Part shown: piece by piece, positions 7,177 through 52,347 of the stretch
How the letters are laid out: every line of letters begins with the position of its first letter
Numbering within the stretch: the first letter of the stretch is position 1
DNA from: an uncultured Candidatus Saccharibacteria bacterium
Lineage (GTDB): Bacteria > Patescibacteriota > Minisyncoccia > Portnoybacterales > UBA2143
Assembly: GCA_964594965.1 (NCBI GenBank)
Contig: CAZQMX010000001.1
Span: 25,667-89,666, forward strand
Length of the DNA: 64,000 nucleotides
Reading direction: 5' to 3'
Notes under the pieces: model-generated
What the model was told of the DNA's origin: nothing
The model's input: only the letters and a program-made list of their open reading frames with translations
Databases searched by the model: none
Position numbers and translations under genes: made by a program

Positions 7177-8409
7177 ATGTATTTAGTTAATACATTAAAA
7201 CTAGCTTTAAGAAATTTGACCTTGCAGAGGAGCAGGTCTTTTTTGACTATGCTCGGAATCATTATTGGTGTTGCTGCCGTTATTTCAATCATTGCCGTTG
7301 GAGCCAGCGCCCAGGATTTGCTTTTAGCCCAGGTTAGGGCAATGGGAAGTAATTTAATTGGTATTCTTCCCGGAGCGAGCGATGAATCCGGACCGCCGGC
7401 CAGTGTCCTTGGTATTGAAGTCACAACTTTGAAATATGAGGATGCTTTGGCTTTGGAAAAAATTCCTCAGATTGAAGCCGTTGCTGCCTATTCCAAGGGA
7501 CGGGGGACAATGAGTTTTTTTAATAAATCAAATGATTTTGACTATACCGGGGTAACGCCAAGTTATCTTAATGTTGAAGATACTGAACTGGAATCAGGCC
7601 GTTTTTTCAGACAAGAAGAAGTTGATAGTTTGGCCCGGGTGGTTGTTTTAGGCAGCAAAGTCAGAGAAGAACTTTTTGGCCAGAACAACCCAATAGATGA
7701 GAGAATTAAGATTAATCAGATTAGTTTTAAAGTTATTGGAGTAATGGAGGAAAGAGGTTCGGCCGCTTTTCAAAATCAGGATGAACAGGTCTTTATTCCA
7801 TTAAAAACAGCCCAGAAAATTATGCTAGGAGTAGACCACCTGGCTTTTATCCGGGCTAAAGTAGACCAGACCAAAAATATTGATCTGGTCATTCCTCAAA
7901 TTAAAAACATTCTTCGCTTCCGCCATAATATTAAAGACCCAACCAAGGATGATTTCTCTGTTAGGAGTACTGATCAGGCCCTTGACCTGCTTGGTTCAAT
8001 CACCCAGGCCTTAAAAGTATTTCTAGGCATGGTTGCCGCTATTTCGTTAATTGTCGGCGGTATCGGCATTATGAATATTATGTTTGTTGCTGTTAATGAA
8101 AGAACCAAGGAAATTGGTCTTCGAAAAGCAATTGGCGCCAAACGAAGAGATATTTTAATCCAGTTTTTAATTGAAAGCGCGACCATGACTTTAATCGGCG
8201 GAATCATCGGTATTATTGTTGGTATTATCATTTCTTTCCTAATTTTCATTGGTGTTAAATATTTTGGCTACGACTGGCGATTTATTGTCACTCCTTTTTC
8301 CATTTTTGTTTCAACTTTTATGGCTATTGCGGTCGGCCTAATTTTTGGCCTTTGGCCAGCTAACCGGGCTTCAAAGTTAAATCCAATTGAGGCGCTTAGG
8401 TATGAGTAA
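7177..8409 (+). CDS. ABC transporter permease, MacB/FtsX-like
   Basis: MacB-type periplasmic domain followed by an FtsX 4-TM domain (GGIGIMNIM). Start moved to the ATG after repeat copy A. The track start is a TTG that translates the repeat. Confidence 0.7.
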   Translation: MYLVNTLKLALRNLTLQRSRSFLTMLGIIIGVAAVISIIAVGASAQDLLLAQVRAMGSNLIGILPGASDESGPPASVLGIEVTTLKYEDALALEKIPQIEAVAAYSKGRGTMSFFNKSNDFDYTGVTPSYLNVEDTELESGRFFRQEEVDSLARVVVLGSKVREELFGQNNPIDERIKINQISFKVIGVMEERGSAAFQNQDEQVFIPLKTAQKIMLGVDHLAFIRAKVDQTKNIDLVIPQIKNILRFRHNIKDPTKDDFSVRSTDQALDLLGSITQALKVFLGMVAAISLIVGGIGIMNIMFVAVNERTKEIGLRKAIGAKRRDILIQFLIESATMTLIGGIIGIIVGIIISFLIFIGVKYFGYDWRFIVTPFSIFVSTFMAIAVGLIFGLWPANRASKLNPIEALRYE

Positions 8410-11471: not shown

Positions 11472-12605
11472 ATGAGAAGAAATAACAAAAAAGTAGTTGT
11501 TGGATTATCAGGCGGAGTTGATTCCTCCGTCTCTTTATTATGCCTCAAAAAACAAGGGTATGAGCCAATCGGGGTTTCTTTTAAATATGATCTCTGGAAA
11601 AACAAAAAAAACAAACTTAAAGAGAATATCTGCTGTTCTGAAAAATCATTTGCCATTGCCAGAGAAATTTGTCAGAAATTAGATGTTCAATATCATATTA
11701 TTGACGATACGATTGATTTCAAAGATAAAGTCATTGGCTATTTTCTCAAAACCCTAAAAGATAAAAAAACGCCCAATCCTTGTTTAATTTGCAATCGCTT
11801 TGTTAAATTTGATAAATTAATTAAGTTTGCTCATAAAATGGATGTCCAATATATTGCCACTGGCCATTATGCTCGGGTAAAAAAACAAGGCAATTCATAT
11901 CAACTTTTGAAAGCAAAAGACAAAACCAAAGACCAAAGTTACTTTTTAGCCCTTTTGGGACAAAAAGAATTATCAAGAATAATTTTTCCTTTAGGGAATT
12001 ATACTAAAAAGCAAGTTTATCAAATTGCCAAAAAACAAGGTTTTGATGCTTTTGAAAAAACCAAACAGAGTCAGGATTTATGCTTTGTTGCCTCCCAATC
12101 AATCCCATTCTTTTTAGAAGAGAAACTTGGATTAGAGCCGGGGAAAATAGTTGATATTGATAACAATATTTTAGGCGAACACAAGGGTTTATATTTTTAT
12201 ACTATTGGCCAGAGAAAAGGATTAAATCTTTCAGGTGGCCCTTGGTATGTAATTGGCTTTGATAAAATCAAAAATTATCTTATAATAACTAATAAGGAAA
12301 AAGATCCAAATCTTTACAAAAAAGAAATTATTCTTTCTGATTTCAGTTTTGTTTCTGGTCAAATACCAAAGGAAGAAATTAAAGTTAAAGCCAAGACCAG
12401 ATTTAGCCAGAAGCCGGCTTTGGCTAAAATTTATCCTCCTAAAAAGAAAAAATTAAAATTAATTTTTGAGAAATCTCAAAAAGCAATTACCCCCGGCCAA
12501 TGGGCAGTTTTTTATAAAGGCGATGTCTGTCTCGGCGGAGGAATAATATTATCGGAGGTTCGACCTCCGATAGTAAAGTCGGAGGTTCGACCTCCGAAAG
12601 TCTAA
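11472..12605 (+). CDS. mnmA: tRNA-specific 2-thiouridylase MnmA
   Basis: PP-loop SGGVDSS with catalytic cysteines. The C-terminal 18 aa (SEVRPPIVKSEVRPPKV) are encoded by two copies of the 17-nt palindrome. Confidence 0.8.
   Translation: MRRNNKKVVVGLSGGVDSSVSLLCLKKQGYEPIGVSFKYDLWKNKKNKLKENICCSEKSFAIAREICQKLDVQYHIIDDTIDFKDKVIGYFLKTLKDKKTPNPCLICNRFVKFDKLIKFAHKMDVQYIATGHYARVKKQGNSYQLLKAKDKTKDQSYFLALLGQKELSRIIFPLGNYTKKQVYQIAKKQGFDAFEKTKQSQDLCFVASQSIPFFLEEKLGLEPGKIVDIDNNILGEHKGLYFYTIGQRKGLNLSGGPWYVIGFDKIKNYLIITNKEKDPNLYKKEIILSDFSFVSGQIPKEEIKVKAKTRFSQKPALAKIYPPKKKKLKLIFEKSQKAITPGQWAVFYKGDVCLGGGIILSEVRPPIVKSEVRPPKV
12553..12596 (+). repeat. two tandem copies of the 17-nt palindrome CGGAGGTTCGACCTCCG
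   Basis: Exact copies at 12553-12569 and 12580-12596. The same 17-mer occurs at 36234 and, on the other strand, at 51870. Confidence 0.8.
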
Positions 12606-19038: not shown

Positions 19039-19119
19039 CTGGGAGTTCGGGTGGGTTCGCCCTGTCATCCGACAGGGCGCCCCGTCGAATGACGGGGCGA
19101 ATCCTCCCACTGGCTCCAG

Positions 19120-19201: not shown

Positions 19202-19267
19202 CGCGTTTTTTATCCAAAACTTGTTTTGGGTATAAAAAAGAGCGTCCCGTCGGATGACGGGACTCAC

Positions 19268-21232: not shown

Positions 21233-22156
21233 ATGGAAACAAACAATCACAATTCACCCAAATACGCCTTTTTATACATGCTTTCTTTAGCAGCCCTGAT
21301 GTTCACCGGCTTTTCAGTCGGCATGATTGCTTTTCAGATAATTAATAAATATGTCCCGGACGCTATTAATCAGTTCAGGCCCAGCTTTGATACCGGAGCG
21401 CTTCGTTTTGCCCTTTCAGCTTTACTAGTAGCAGCGCCGGTATTCTTTATCGTTAACTATTTCATCAACAAAGGTCTTTACAAAGGAGTCCTAACAAAAG
21501 ATTCCGGAGTCAGAAAATGGCTGACATATTTTATTCTCCTGGTCTCTTCGGTTGTTATTCTGGGCTGGTTTATTGGATTGATTAACACTTTTTTGGGAGG
21601 AGAACTAACCCTCAAATTTGCTCTGAAAGCTTTAATTTCAATTATTCTCTCAGCCCTGGCTTTTAGTTTCTATCTCTATGATATCCGTCGTGAAGGCATA
21701 GCAGGGAAGAAAGATGGTGTCGTTAGGATATATTTCTATATCGCCCTGATTATTGTCATCAGCGCCCTATCTTCGGCTTTGGTTTTCGGAGAAAGCCCAA
21801 TGGAAGCCAGAAACAAGAAACTGGACAGCGCAATTTTAAACGACTTCAGCAGCATTAAAAACGCCATAGACCAATATTATAATAGCAATGAGAGCCTGCC
21901 GAAAAATCTATCTGTCTTAGAAGGGGAAGTTGAATTTATGACCCAAGATAGATTAACTGATCCGGAAACGGATTCAAATTACCAATATAATATTTTGAGT
22001 GAAAGTGAATACGAATTATGCGCTAACTTTAGAACTTCCAATCTGGAAGATGACGATGGAATGAACGAATTTTATAGAGAAACCTGGCCGCATCAGAAAG
22101 GCAGGCAGTGCATTGAAAAGAGTGTTGAAGATCCAAAACCCACACCAATCAGATAA
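21233..22156 (+). CDS. hypothetical membrane protein (4 TM N-terminal domain, DUF5671-like) with a soluble Cys-containing C-terminal domain
   Basis: ORF and hydropathy only. N-terminus SPKYAFLYMLSLAAL. Confidence 0.3.
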   Translation: METNNHNSPKYAFLYMLSLAALMFTGFSVGMIAFQIINKYVPDAINQFRPSFDTGALRFALSALLVAAPVFFIVNYFINKGLYKGVLTKDSGVRKWLTYFILLVSSVVILGWFIGLINTFLGGELTLKFALKALISIILSALAFSFYLYDIRREGIAGKKDGVVRIYFYIALIIVISALSSALVFGESPMEARNKKLDSAILNDFSSIKNAIDQYYNSNESLPKNLSVLEGEVEFMTQDRLTDPETDSNYQYNILSESEYELCANFRTSNLEDDDGMNEFYRETWPHQKGRQCIEKSVEDPKPTPIR

Positions 22157-22162
22157 TTAGAA

Positions 22163-22193
22163 AACACCCCGCAGTACTGCGGGGTGTTTTTTG
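22163..22193 (+). terminator. strong rho-independent terminator
   Basis: ACACCCCGCAGTACTGCGGGGTGT followed by TTTTTTG. Confidence 0.6.
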
Positions 22194-35483: not shown

Positions 35484-36230
35484 ATGATTCCATATTTCTC
35501 GTACAATCAGGTTGAAATATTTGGGATAACTCTTTATCCCTGGGGGTTTTTTATTGGTCTGGCTTTTCTTTCCGGCTATTTATTGATTTTAAATCAATCC
35601 AAAAAACAGGGAATAAGGGAAAAAAATGTTTTCTGGCTTTTTATCTGGATTTTTATCGGGGTAATGATTGGTTCTCGTTTGGGATATATTCTTCAATTCC
35701 CAGGAAGATTTTTTGATAATCCAATAGATATTTTTAAATTCAGCGCCGGGGGATTGATGCTTTATGGTGGACTTATCGGAGCTTTAATTACCGGAGGACT
35801 TTATTTAAAAAAAGCCAAGCTTAATTTTTTAAAAACAGCTGATATTTTAGCGCCGGCTATTGCTTTGGGTATCTTTATCGGTCGGATTGGCTGTTTTTTA
35901 ATTAATGACCACCAGGGGGCAGTAACAAGTTTGCCTTGGGCAATTCAATGGGCGGACGGCAGTTTGCGTCACCCCATTGCCCTTTATTTATCTCTTAATG
36001 GATTAATTCTATTTTTTGTCTTATTAAAATTAAGAAAGAAATTAATTAAACCAGGCCAATTATTTTTTATTTTTCTAGCTTGGTACGCCATTTCCCGCTT
36101 TTTCCTTGATTTTCTGAGAGCAAGTGATACAGTATTAGCAGACCCTCATTACTGGGGTTTGACAATTAGCCAGTGGTTCAGTTTGTTAATTCCTATCATA
36201 CTATTTGCGTGTTTAAAATTTCGGAGATAA
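35484..36230 (+). CDS. lgt: prolipoprotein diacylglyceryl transferase
   Basis: Polytopic protein with a GRIGCFLINDHQG signature region. Start trimmed to MIPYF. Confidence 0.75.
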   Translation: MIPYFSYNQVEIFGITLYPWGFFIGLAFLSGYLLILNQSKKQGIREKNVFWLFIWIFIGVMIGSRLGYILQFPGRFFDNPIDIFKFSAGGLMLYGGLIGALITGGLYLKKAKLNFLKTADILAPAIALGIFIGRIGCFLINDHQGAVTSLPWAIQWADGSLRHPIALYLSLNGLILFFVLLKLRKKLIKPGQLFFIFLAWYAISRFFLDFLRASDTVLADPHYWGLTISQWFSLLIPIILFACLKFRR

Positions 36231-36233
36231 TTT

Positions 36234-36260
36234 CGGAGGTTCGACCTCCGATTTTTTTTA
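36234..36260 (+). terminator. 17-nt palindrome CGGAGGTTCGACCTCCG followed by T8, an intrinsic terminator after lgt
   Basis: 7-bp GC stem with a 3-nt loop, then TTTTTTTT. Confidence 0.6.
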
Positions 36261-36300
36261 TTCACTTAATCAATATTTTTCTTTATGATATAATATCAGT

Positions 36301-43338: not shown

Positions 43339-43423
43339 TTTTTTGGAATAAATAACAGGAGGCTATCCTCCTGTTTGAAAGTATATATTTTTTACCTGCC
43401 CCGGGCAAGGGAAGATTCTGTTA

Positions 43424-51264: not shown

Positions 51265-51349
51265 CTGAAATTTATTACGGGTTCGCCCTGTCATCCGACG
51301 GGGCGCCCTATCGGATGATAGGGCGATTCCCTCTACCCCTACCATGATA

Positions 51350-51392: not shown

Positions 51393-51444
51393 TCTCTCAA
51401 TGGTGTTTATTCATCTTATTTATGCTAAAATATTGGATAAGAAA

Positions 51445-52347
51445 ATGCATCACATAGCGATAATGAGAAAATCCTGGGGTCTCTTGCCCAAGATTTTAAC
51501 CAAAGAAAAGACAATTGAATCACGCTGGTATATGAATAAATATTCCCCCTGGGACAGAATTAAAAAAGGGGATATTGTCTATTTTAAAAACTCTGGCGAG
51601 CCGATCAGCGTTAAAACAGAAGTTTCAAAGATTATTCAGTATTCAGATTTAACATCAGTTAAAGTTAAACAAATTCTTGAAGAATATGGCGCTAAAGATG
51701 GTTTGGGCATTAATGAAATTGACAAATATTATCAGATGTTTAAAGATAAAAAGTATTGTTTATTAATTTTTCTTAAAAATCCGCAGAAAATTAAATCTTT
51801 TGATATAGACAAAACCGGATTTGGAGCCATGGCGGCCTGGATAACAGTTGATAATATAAAAAGAATTATCGGAGGTCGAACCTCCGACAGTCCCAATATG
51901 ACTAATTTAATGACAAAAGAACAATTTAATAAGAAAAAGAAGGAACTGGATAAATTAAAGAAAGAATATGAGAAATTGGGTAAAAAGATTTCTGGAGAAG
52001 CCAAAGACAGCGGTTCTTTTCTTCATAATATCCCAGGCTATGTTGGATTAATGGATAGAATGGAAGCCCTCTCTTTAAAGATTGCTCAGTTAGAAAAAGA
52101 ATTGGACTCTGTTCAAATGATTAGCCCGAAGGAGATTCCTTCTGGTGTTGTCTCGGTTTTATCCTGTGTTTTGGTTTTAGATATTCTGAAAAACAAAAAA
52201 GAGAAATATTGTTTCGGGGAAAATATTAGCCAGGATTCCTTAATTGGCAAAGCGCTGATTAATAAGAAGGTTGGGGATAGAGTAAAAGTTAAAACCCCAA
52301 AAGGCGAAAGGGAATTGGAGATACTGGAAATAGAAGTTATGGCTTGA
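51445..52347 (+). CDS. fusion protein: N-terminal ASCH domain plus GreA/GreB-like coiled-coil and C-terminal FKBP-like domain
   Basis: ASCH motif LTKEKTIESRW...GD. GreA-like C-terminal domain SPKEIPSGVVS...IGKALINKKVGDRVKV. The 17-nt palindrome (51870-51886) lies in-frame at the junction. Start chosen after a TATGCTAAAAT element. Confidence 0.45.
   Translation: MHHIAIMRKSWGLLPKILTKEKTIESRWYMNKYSPWDRIKKGDIVYFKNSGEPISVKTEVSKIIQYSDLTSVKVKQILEEYGAKDGLGINEIDKYYQMFKDKKYCLLIFLKNPQKIKSFDIDKTGFGAMAAWITVDNIKRIIGGRTSDSPNMTNLMTKEQFNKKKKELDKLKKEYEKLGKKISGEAKDSGSFLHNIPGYVGLMDRMEALSLKIAQLEKELDSVQMISPKEIPSGVVSVLSCVLVLDILKNKKEKYCFGENISQDSLIGKALINKKVGDRVKVKTPKGERELEILEIEVMA

Follow-up and report, generated by a model that had tools for sequence, protein, structure and literature searches.

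A stop-free GC-rich palindrome at gene ends of a Patescibacteria genome, a likely member of a REP-type repeat family

Repetitive extragenic palindromic (REP) elements are short repeated palindromes, found for the most part no more than 20 bp downstream of open reading frames (ORFs), some copies being intragenic and translated (PMC3733652). They often form inverted doublets and are associated with REP-associated tyrosine transposases (RAYTs) (PMC3733652, PMC2817692, PMC3116915); a RAYT gene flanked by REPs is the defining arrangement of REP-RAYT systems (PMC2817692). The palindromes are headed at one end by a GT(A/G)G or CGTC tetranucleotide (PMC2817692, PMC3733652). Here we analyse a GC-rich palindrome, CGGAGGTTCGACCTCCG, that recurs in a stretch of 64,000 nt of contig CAZQMX010000001.1 (the window), which has a GC content of 35–41% and a gene content typical of Patescibacteria. 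The palindrome is interpreted, with moderate confidence, as one representative of a family of short non-autonomous REP-type repeats in Patescibacteria that is probably mobilised by a RAYT. REP elements and RAYTs are described mainly in Proteobacteria, and in the literature searched we found neither a report that connects RAYT or REPIN with the Candidate Phyla Radiation (CPR) or with Patescibacteria nor a paper that gives the core sequence of the palindrome.

The family shares with the REPs and REPINs of Proteobacteria its short GC-rich hairpin, dispersed as singlets and as doublets that fold into one long hairpin. Like REPs, its copies are found mostly just downstream of ORFs, with some intragenic and translated, they show no evident target duplication, and a core common to different genomes is set in flanks that differ. 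A Y1/HUH transposase gene positioned between palindrome copies, an arrangement that recalls REP-RAYT systems, is present on one related contig. The hosts are different, namely AT-rich ultra-small Patescibacteria, the copy number appears low and the share of coding copies is large. The palindromic elements of Rickettsia (RPEs), reportedly described by Ogata et al. in 2000 as selfish elements that have entered protein-coding genes in frame, are a second system for comparison. To our knowledge no transposase has been assigned to them. RPEs are discussed in PMC3733652 and PMC1779305; like them, the repeats reported here are palindromes of a reduced AT-rich genome that are carried in frame by housekeeping proteins, to which they add short peptides, but their unit measures 19–29 nt, against ~100–150 bp for RPEs, and is tied to a Y1 transposase in a relative. 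The GC clusters of yeast and other AT-rich mitochondria and the palindromes of Volvox organelles (PMC2670323) are likewise selfish GC-rich hairpins of AT-rich compact genomes that are occasionally coding; these are, however, organellar, belong to a different sequence family and have no link to an HUH transposase. The family is also unlike MITEs, the miniature transposable elements with inverted repeats, its unit being a single hairpin devoid of internal sequence and of target duplication at the two copies (in mnmA, see below) where this could be read.

An exact-match search finds CGGAGGTTCGACCTCCG at positions 12553–12569, 12580–12596 and 36234–36250 on the + strand and its reverse-complement form at 51870–51886, in full agreement with the copies listed in a first-pass annotation made from the sequence of the window. 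Four copies compare with 0.04 expected (8 strand-matches, a number reached by none of 100 shuffles), the half-sites CGGAGGT and ACCTCCG are confined to these four places, and the palindrome supplies the sole mixed-sequence 14-mer that occurs four times in the window, the other 14-mers with three copies being A-rich low-complexity strings. The unit is at least the 19-mer TCGGAGGTTCGACCTCCGA, since a flanking T and A are common to all four copies. These 19-mers span 12552–12570 (copy 1), 12579–12597 (copy 2) and 36233–36251 (copy 3) on the + strand and, with the loop in opposite orientation, 51869–51887 (copy 4) on the - strand. In the fold of the 19-mer a stem of 8 bp closes a 3-nt loop (-12.5 kcal/mol for RNA, -7.7 kcal/mol for DNA); the GC stem with its 3-nt loop had been recognised in the first pass, where the stem was counted as 7 bp in a 17-nt unit. 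The core is free of stop codons in all six frames. Each window copy is located at a gene 3' end and none in a gene interior. The repeats are not an assembly artefact because the same window sequences were recovered in independent assemblies from several other samples (JGI 3300009405, 3300009374 and 3300009105; ENA ERZ23499057; Logan SRR9166041 and SRR8062331).

Copies 1 and 2 belong to the end of mnmA (11472–12605, + strand), which codes for the tRNA 2-thiouridine synthase, a protein of 377 residues whose Pfam domains extend to residue 359. They are 27 nt apart and share one reading frame, each being translated as SEVRPP in the last codons of the gene, the second followed by KV and the stop. 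The MnmA carboxyl terminus accordingly reads GGGII-L-SEVRPP-IVK-SEVRPP-KV*. The tandem in-frame arrangement had been correctly described; the tail length of 18 residues given with it holds if the L is counted, while the string then quoted has 17 residues. All 120 MnmA homologues listed span ~95% of the query. The palindrome-encoded tail is absent from the homologues listed, including all 13 that were aligned, 11 of which end 0–4 residues past the conserved GGGxI; the first-pass annotation had proposed to verify whether orthologues are tail-less. The site is empty also in the sister genome GCA_964596615.1 (MnmA 91% identical), where mnmA ends ..GGAATAATTAAATTGGTGAAATAATG with no palindrome and its stop codon overlaps the ATG of the next gene. 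The corresponding window sequence, with the inserts in square brackets, is ATA TTA [TCGGAGGTTCGACCTCCG] ATA GTA AAG [TCGGAGGTTCGACCTCCGAAAGTC] TAA ATG. Outside the inserts the sequence encodes L-IVK-stop, in agreement with the closest homologues, whose 4-residue tails read KLVK, ELVN and KQIQ; the TAA/ATG junction to the following gene is preserved as well. For these two reasons the tail most likely originates, as far as sequence comparison can tell, from two insertions in frame (18 nt and 24 nt) that kept the native 4-residue carboxyl terminus. A frameshift model, in which a 19-nt insertion led to read-through of an older TAG stop, is less parsimonious and was set aside as the less likely of the two. 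Comparison of the filled site with the empty site of the sister reveals no target-site duplication at either copy. The doublet (12552–12597), whose copy 2 can pair with copy 1, folds as a single long hairpin of -33.7 kcal/mol (z -6.8).

Copy 4 is translated as GGRTSD within an ORF of the + strand that starts at 51400 or 51445 and ends at 52347. Pfam matches and homologue alignment delimit in this ORF an ASCH domain (residues 1 to ~145), the palindrome-encoded junction (IIGGR-TSDSPNMTNLMTK) and a GreA-like protein. The latter is complete, position 2 of the GreA_GreB_N profile falling at residue 155 and the GreA/GreB carboxyl-terminal domain following; ATG codons are found at 51898 and 51910, 11 nt and 23 nt downstream of the palindrome. 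Sixty of the 61 other homologues of ORF 51445–52347 align to its first half only. Most ASCH homologues are stand-alone proteins of ~165–200 residues and a few have other domains, the same fusion being present among the homologues only in P0121, an identical protein of this same genome. The carboxyl terminus of close ASCH homologues follows the pattern ..NIxxIKxK*, and the two closest ones (79% and 76% identical) terminate ..IKEK* and ..IKVK* exactly at the palindrome start. Judged from these alignments, copy 4 occupies the place of the ASCH stop codon and joins two genes in one frame. The in-frame GGRTSD at the junction of the ASCH and GreA-like halves, seen in the first pass, is a fact, yet its description as a linker is better replaced by that of a gene fusion at a former stop position. 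In the sister genome no close orthologue of this locus was found; the best ASCH homologue (79%) is carried by 1-kb contigs whose DNA past the stop codon is unalignable.

Copy 3 begins 3 nt past the stop codon of lgt, whose carboxyl terminus LKFRR* is of a kind also found in homologues, and is followed by a run of eight T (36252–36259, + strand). The two together are picked up by a terminator scan as an intrinsic-terminator-like site and a promoter-like site, ATTCACTTAATCAAT..TATAAT, is located downstream. In the sister genome lgt is succeeded by two small genes, a hairpin of another sequence (GAGGCCGAC..GTCGGCC), TTTTTATTCACTTAATCAAT.. and the promoter region of the ATPase. Copy 3 is found exactly at the position of the sister hairpin, and the T-run and the downstream promoter region are common to both genomes, which makes it plausible that copy 3 acts as a terminator stem; it would probably be the lgt terminator stem that has taken the place of another hairpin. 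Note that the two small genes of the sister (77 and 133 residues) form an extra segment between lgt and a P-type ATPase gene (L058 10745–11534), while positions 36231–36300 of the window hold the palindrome and the T-run only, an indel of ~790 bp. A near-tandem 12-nt repeat, AATTTCGGAGAT|AATTTCGGAGGT (36215–36238, + strand), bridges the native lgt stop codon (..FRR*) and the left arm of copy 3; its length is beyond chance, and it may record the arrival of copy 3 by microhomology or slippage. REPs within ~15 nt of a stop codon can, as Liang, Rudd and Deutscher reportedly found in 2015, hold up ribosomes at termination and reduce the expression of the gene upstream; by analogy, copy 3 and many other members of the family could have such an effect.

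Outside the window, the same genome carries a further locus 9 kb past the window end, where an inverted doublet (L057 17745/17765) with opposite loop orientations fills the 55-nt spacer between two co-directional genes and folds with -39.4 kcal/mol; no copy was found in the 6 kb upstream of the window. In ~79 kb of this genome there are thus six copies at four loci. Over 42 kb of syntenic DNA the sister genome is devoid of family copies, and by this comparison the repeat is best understood as gained in this lineage after its split from the sister.

The exact 19-mer is present in multiple copies, in unrelated contexts, in four low-GC assemblies (24–38% GC) of a genome collection of 596 Gb. Three of them are labelled Patescibacteria (JAYEKG01, JBBTVT01 and AH-259-L07), while other phyla gave five single matches, about the chance level for 19 bases in 596 Gb. 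A metagenome scan added 28 loci, many of them in groundwater samples. The core is constant across distant genomes and the flanks vary between loci. Alignment of 35 copies yields the consensus nnnAAnnTTC-GGAGGTTCGACCTCC-GAAnnTTnnn. Just outside the TC/GA, four bases on each side pair mutually more often than in shuffled or slid controls. Many double changes reveal covariation in this outer stem, and the pairing extends the hairpin to ~27 nt in many copies. On contig Ga0075122_10000820, with at least 12 copies in 23 kb, the stem is longer and genome-specific (AATCTTC..GAAGATT or AACCTTC..GAAGGTT) and the loop region varies (TTCGA, TCGAA, TCGGA, TTGGA, TCCAA). More doublets are found in loci L028, L036 and L038.

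The placement of the repeat relative to genes was tallied, on the basis of crude ORF calls, for 43 copies that are non-redundant and come from low-GC loci. Intergenic copies amount to 23 (53%), against 14% of the sequence, and 14 copies (33%) are non-coding and lie no more than ~25 nt past a stop codon, a zone that represents 1.9% of the sequence. The other 20 are inside ORFs, five of them at most 40 nt from the 3' end, among which is the copy that encodes the carboxyl terminus of a ProRS (L004). The remainder are in-frame internal inserts of conserved proteins, found in GAPDH (PSEVRPPNLEVEPPK), TsaD (FGGSTSEGSNVRPPKV), a GT4 glycosyltransferase (SEVRPP), another MnmA (SREVRPLE) and an O-antigen-ligase-like protein (RRSNLRWEVRPL); those of GAPDH, TsaD and the other MnmA come from the Y1 transposase contig described below and two other contigs. 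Coding copies use all three frames and both orientations, with the readings SEVRPP, GGRTSD and RRSNLR.

The contig that links the repeat to a transposase, L039, carries on its - strand an ORF of 226 residues (7330–8007) that matches Pfam Y1_Tnp with 35.9 bits (gathering cut-off 23, E 9e-9). Its best NCBIfam match is the REP-associated tyrosine transposase family (REP_Tyr_transpos, 36.6 bits, curated cut-off 80), IS200 scoring 12.9 bits, and it has an HFH (HUH) motif with YMHLNP..WSS ~67 residues further on. An exact 19-mer is positioned 36 nt upstream of the ORF start and a doublet directly past its stop. Two additional copies are found in frame inside the ORF, read as PSEVGPPK before the HUH motif and as FGGPTSEV after YMHLNP, from which it appears that the element has colonised its own presumed transposase. 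The four copies within 770 nt around the ORF are well above the density elsewhere on contigs of that sample. Neither the 19-mer nor a relative of this RAYT-like protein was found in viral contigs, and a phage origin of the repeat was rejected on this ground.

These data suggest the following course of events. The element would be a GC-rich hairpin, GGAGGT-NNN-ACCTCC, usually lengthened by TC/GA and then by a small number of bases that vary but are self-complementary. Insertion would give rise to new copies, the likeliest route being that single-stranded DNA hairpins are handled by a RAYT-type Y1 (HUH) transposase, which may be encoded elsewhere in the genome or may formerly have been present. 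They would survive only where they do little harm, that is in the few bases around stop codons and in flexible protein tails or loops, these genomes having almost no intergenic space. The absence of stop codons in the six frames of the core makes read-through as SEVRPP, GGRTS(D/E) or RRFDLR possible. At mnmA the outcome would be the two in-frame insertions, with the native tail and the stop/start junction retained; at ASCH, the loss of a stop codon and read-through into the GreA-like gene; and at lgt, a copy placed ahead of a pre-existing T-run instead of the other hairpin. The extended MnmA and the ASCH-GreA protein are predicted to be expressed. The first-pass annotation had already regarded the palindrome as a small REP-like mobile element that is tolerated in coding sequence when it lands in frame, a view now supported by the empty mnmA site, the spread of the family, the Y1 transposase contig and the in-frame copies.

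Several points weigh against this interpretation. Copy density is low in this genome (~6 copies in 79 kb), and tblastn and a motif scan over the 64-kb window, ~15 kb of additional flanking sequence and the other fetched loci detected no RAYT-like gene besides that of L039. The transposase link comes from one metagenome contig of a distant relative (MnmA 36% identical to that of the window), which is copy-dense, so that the flanking of the gene by palindromes could in part be due to chance. The copies that flank the gene have the same loop orientation and are not inverted as in described REP-RAYT units. The RAYT-like protein itself is divergent, its score being below the NCBIfam curated cut-off (36.6 against 80), and phmmer gave no credible relative of it in the PDB. 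Unlike REPs, the 35 aligned copies have no GTAG/CTAC or CGTC/GACG tag, and their stem is perfect, with 8 bp and a 3-nt loop, whereas REPs are imperfect palindromes of 20–40 nt. At lgt, either the palindrome was gained or the sister region was rearranged. A wider proposal, put forward tentatively, is that CPR bacteria carry their own untagged class of REP/RAYT, a minimal hairpin that is stop-free in six frames and fitted to intergenic-poor genomes. It would be found routinely in ORFs, in any of the three frames, creating tails, loop inserts and fusions such as ASCH-GreA in housekeeping proteins, and could replace terminator hairpins. Passed horizontally from one distant lineage to another, it would repeatedly give rise to new proteins and operons throughout the radiation. 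If the REP-type interpretation is true, even the most streamlined bacterial genomes host selfish hairpins, and in genomes whose genes touch or overlap it is translatability that lets the element persist. Gene ends would be remodelled by it, with 14 net residues added to an essential tRNA-modification enzyme, a gene fusion and the swap of a terminator hairpin. Its copies would account for odd carboxyl-terminal extensions and 'fusion' proteins in CPR annotations and would be usable as presence/absence markers in strain typing.

The alternative that survives best, although we consider it unlikely, is that these are intrinsic terminators of the ordinary kind, or 3' hairpins that stabilise RNA, with a sequence shared through selection, recombination or gene conversion, without a transposase and without selfish spread. 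Copy 3 has the layout of such a terminator, its GC-rich stem and T8 being situated between a stop codon and the next promoter, exactly at the position of the sister's terminator hairpin. The sequence features of an intrinsic terminator (8-bp stem, T8, promoter-like site downstream) are seen at copy 3 only; copies 1, 2 and 4 are translated and have no T-run. The many family copies directly past stop codons, the relatives with AAAACCTTC..GAAGGTTTTT forms and the covariation of the outer stem, as expected of a selected hairpin, also fit this alternative. However, only 14 of 37 family copies, and one of the four in the window, have T-rich sequence at most 16 nt away, both strands being considered, and for this reason termination is not the general role of the family. 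The lgt terminator proposed in the first pass is thus plausible as regards copy 3 and T8, but not as a function that could be extended to the family. The 20 copies in ORFs, some of them deep in GAPDH, TsaD and MnmA, the occurrence of both loop orientations relative to the gene and a sister genome that does without any copy in the syntenic DNA are further difficulties. Moreover, a sequence shared over loci and genomes is no feature of terminators, and a 19-nt core that is identical between genomes whose MnmA proteins have just 36% identity is unexpected under convergent evolution of terminators.

It is improbable that the palindrome is instead a selected recognition site for a host factor, whether a pair of uptake sequences, the target of a methylase or restriction enzyme at the central TCGA, or the site of a DNA- or RNA-binding protein. 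The invariance of the core in distant genomes with variable flanks would agree with such a site, and the inverted half-sites at gene ends recall, by analogy, pairs of DNA uptake sequences (DUS) or uptake signal sequences (USS). In Neisseria, pairs of DUS, which serve natural transformation, occur in terminators. The density of about one locus per 20 kb in this genome is far under that of uptake sequences, however, and the half-sites are never alone in the window. The absence of copies from the 42 kb of a close sister is hard to square with a conserved host function, and no candidate receptor or methylase is linked to the palindrome. Least probable by far is selection at the protein level for a peptide motif, the DNA palindromy being incidental: SEVRPP, EVEPPK and EVRPL do recur in several proteins, but this explanation is contradicted by one DNA sequence being read in three frames (SEVRPP, GGRTSD, RRSNLR) and both orientations, by more than half of the copies being intergenic and by DNA that agrees base for base and shows no synonymous variation.

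The arms of the palindrome (for example at 12553–12569) coincide with the consensus of the Shine-Dalgarno sequence, GGAGGT, and with ACCTCC, which we take to be the anti-Shine-Dalgarno core of the 16S rRNA 3' end. A Shine-Dalgarno role was rejected, GGAGG being 20–25 nt away from the next ATG and many copies having no downstream gene start. An origin from a tRNA T-arm was discarded too: GGTTCGA is present, but there is neither a tRNA-like fold nor an Rfam match. Assignment to a known RNA family found no ground either, there being no Rfam match at gathering score near any copy.

The fourth assembly with multiple copies of the 19-mer, CAYHOD01, is labelled 'uncultured Gammaproteobacteria'. Its GC content is 27–30%, and it has palindrome loci identical to those of JBBTVT01 and of groundwater contigs from Hainich (L007/L022 versus L008; L015 versus L042/L043); its label is probably wrong. 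Some higher-GC contigs carry related sequences: a doublet with the variant CCGAGGTCGAACCTCGCC in L036 (1488–1530) and a copy with a GACGCG..CGCGTC outer stem in L031 (730–748). In L020 (2040–2150) two copies 90 nt apart are found inside an Elusimicrobiota ORF of 1452 residues. The family may thus have relatives outside Patescibacteria. Within the window, the hairpin AACAGGAGGCTATCCTCCTGTT (43354–43375, - strand), situated between the CysRS stop and the DnaB start, has the same GGAGG/CCTCC stem core. There is no equivalent in the CysRS-DnaB spacer of the sister genome, and this hairpin may be a diverged relative of the family or an independent terminator.

The window also has a second, unrelated family of GC-rich palindromes, at 19059–19098, 19244–19263 and 51285–51324. 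It consists of an abutting pair of hairpins, GCCCTGTCATCCGACrGGGC|GCCCyrTCGrATGAyrGGGC, that is found ~20 nt past tRNA-Thr and past tRNA-Lys, and of a related single hairpin ahead of a second tRNA-Thr. The flanks, GGGTTC..GAATCCTCCCAC..CTCCA and GGGTTC..GATTCCC..ACCA, resemble a T-arm and CCA end split by a 40-nt insert; these sites have no credible Rfam match and ARAGORN calls no tRNA there. Finally, a perfect 30-nt palindrome, AAAACACCCCGCAGTACTGCGGGGTGTTTT, unrelated to the repeat family, occupies 22161–22190 directly after an ORF that ends at 22156, and from its sequence and position it looks like a bidirectional terminator.

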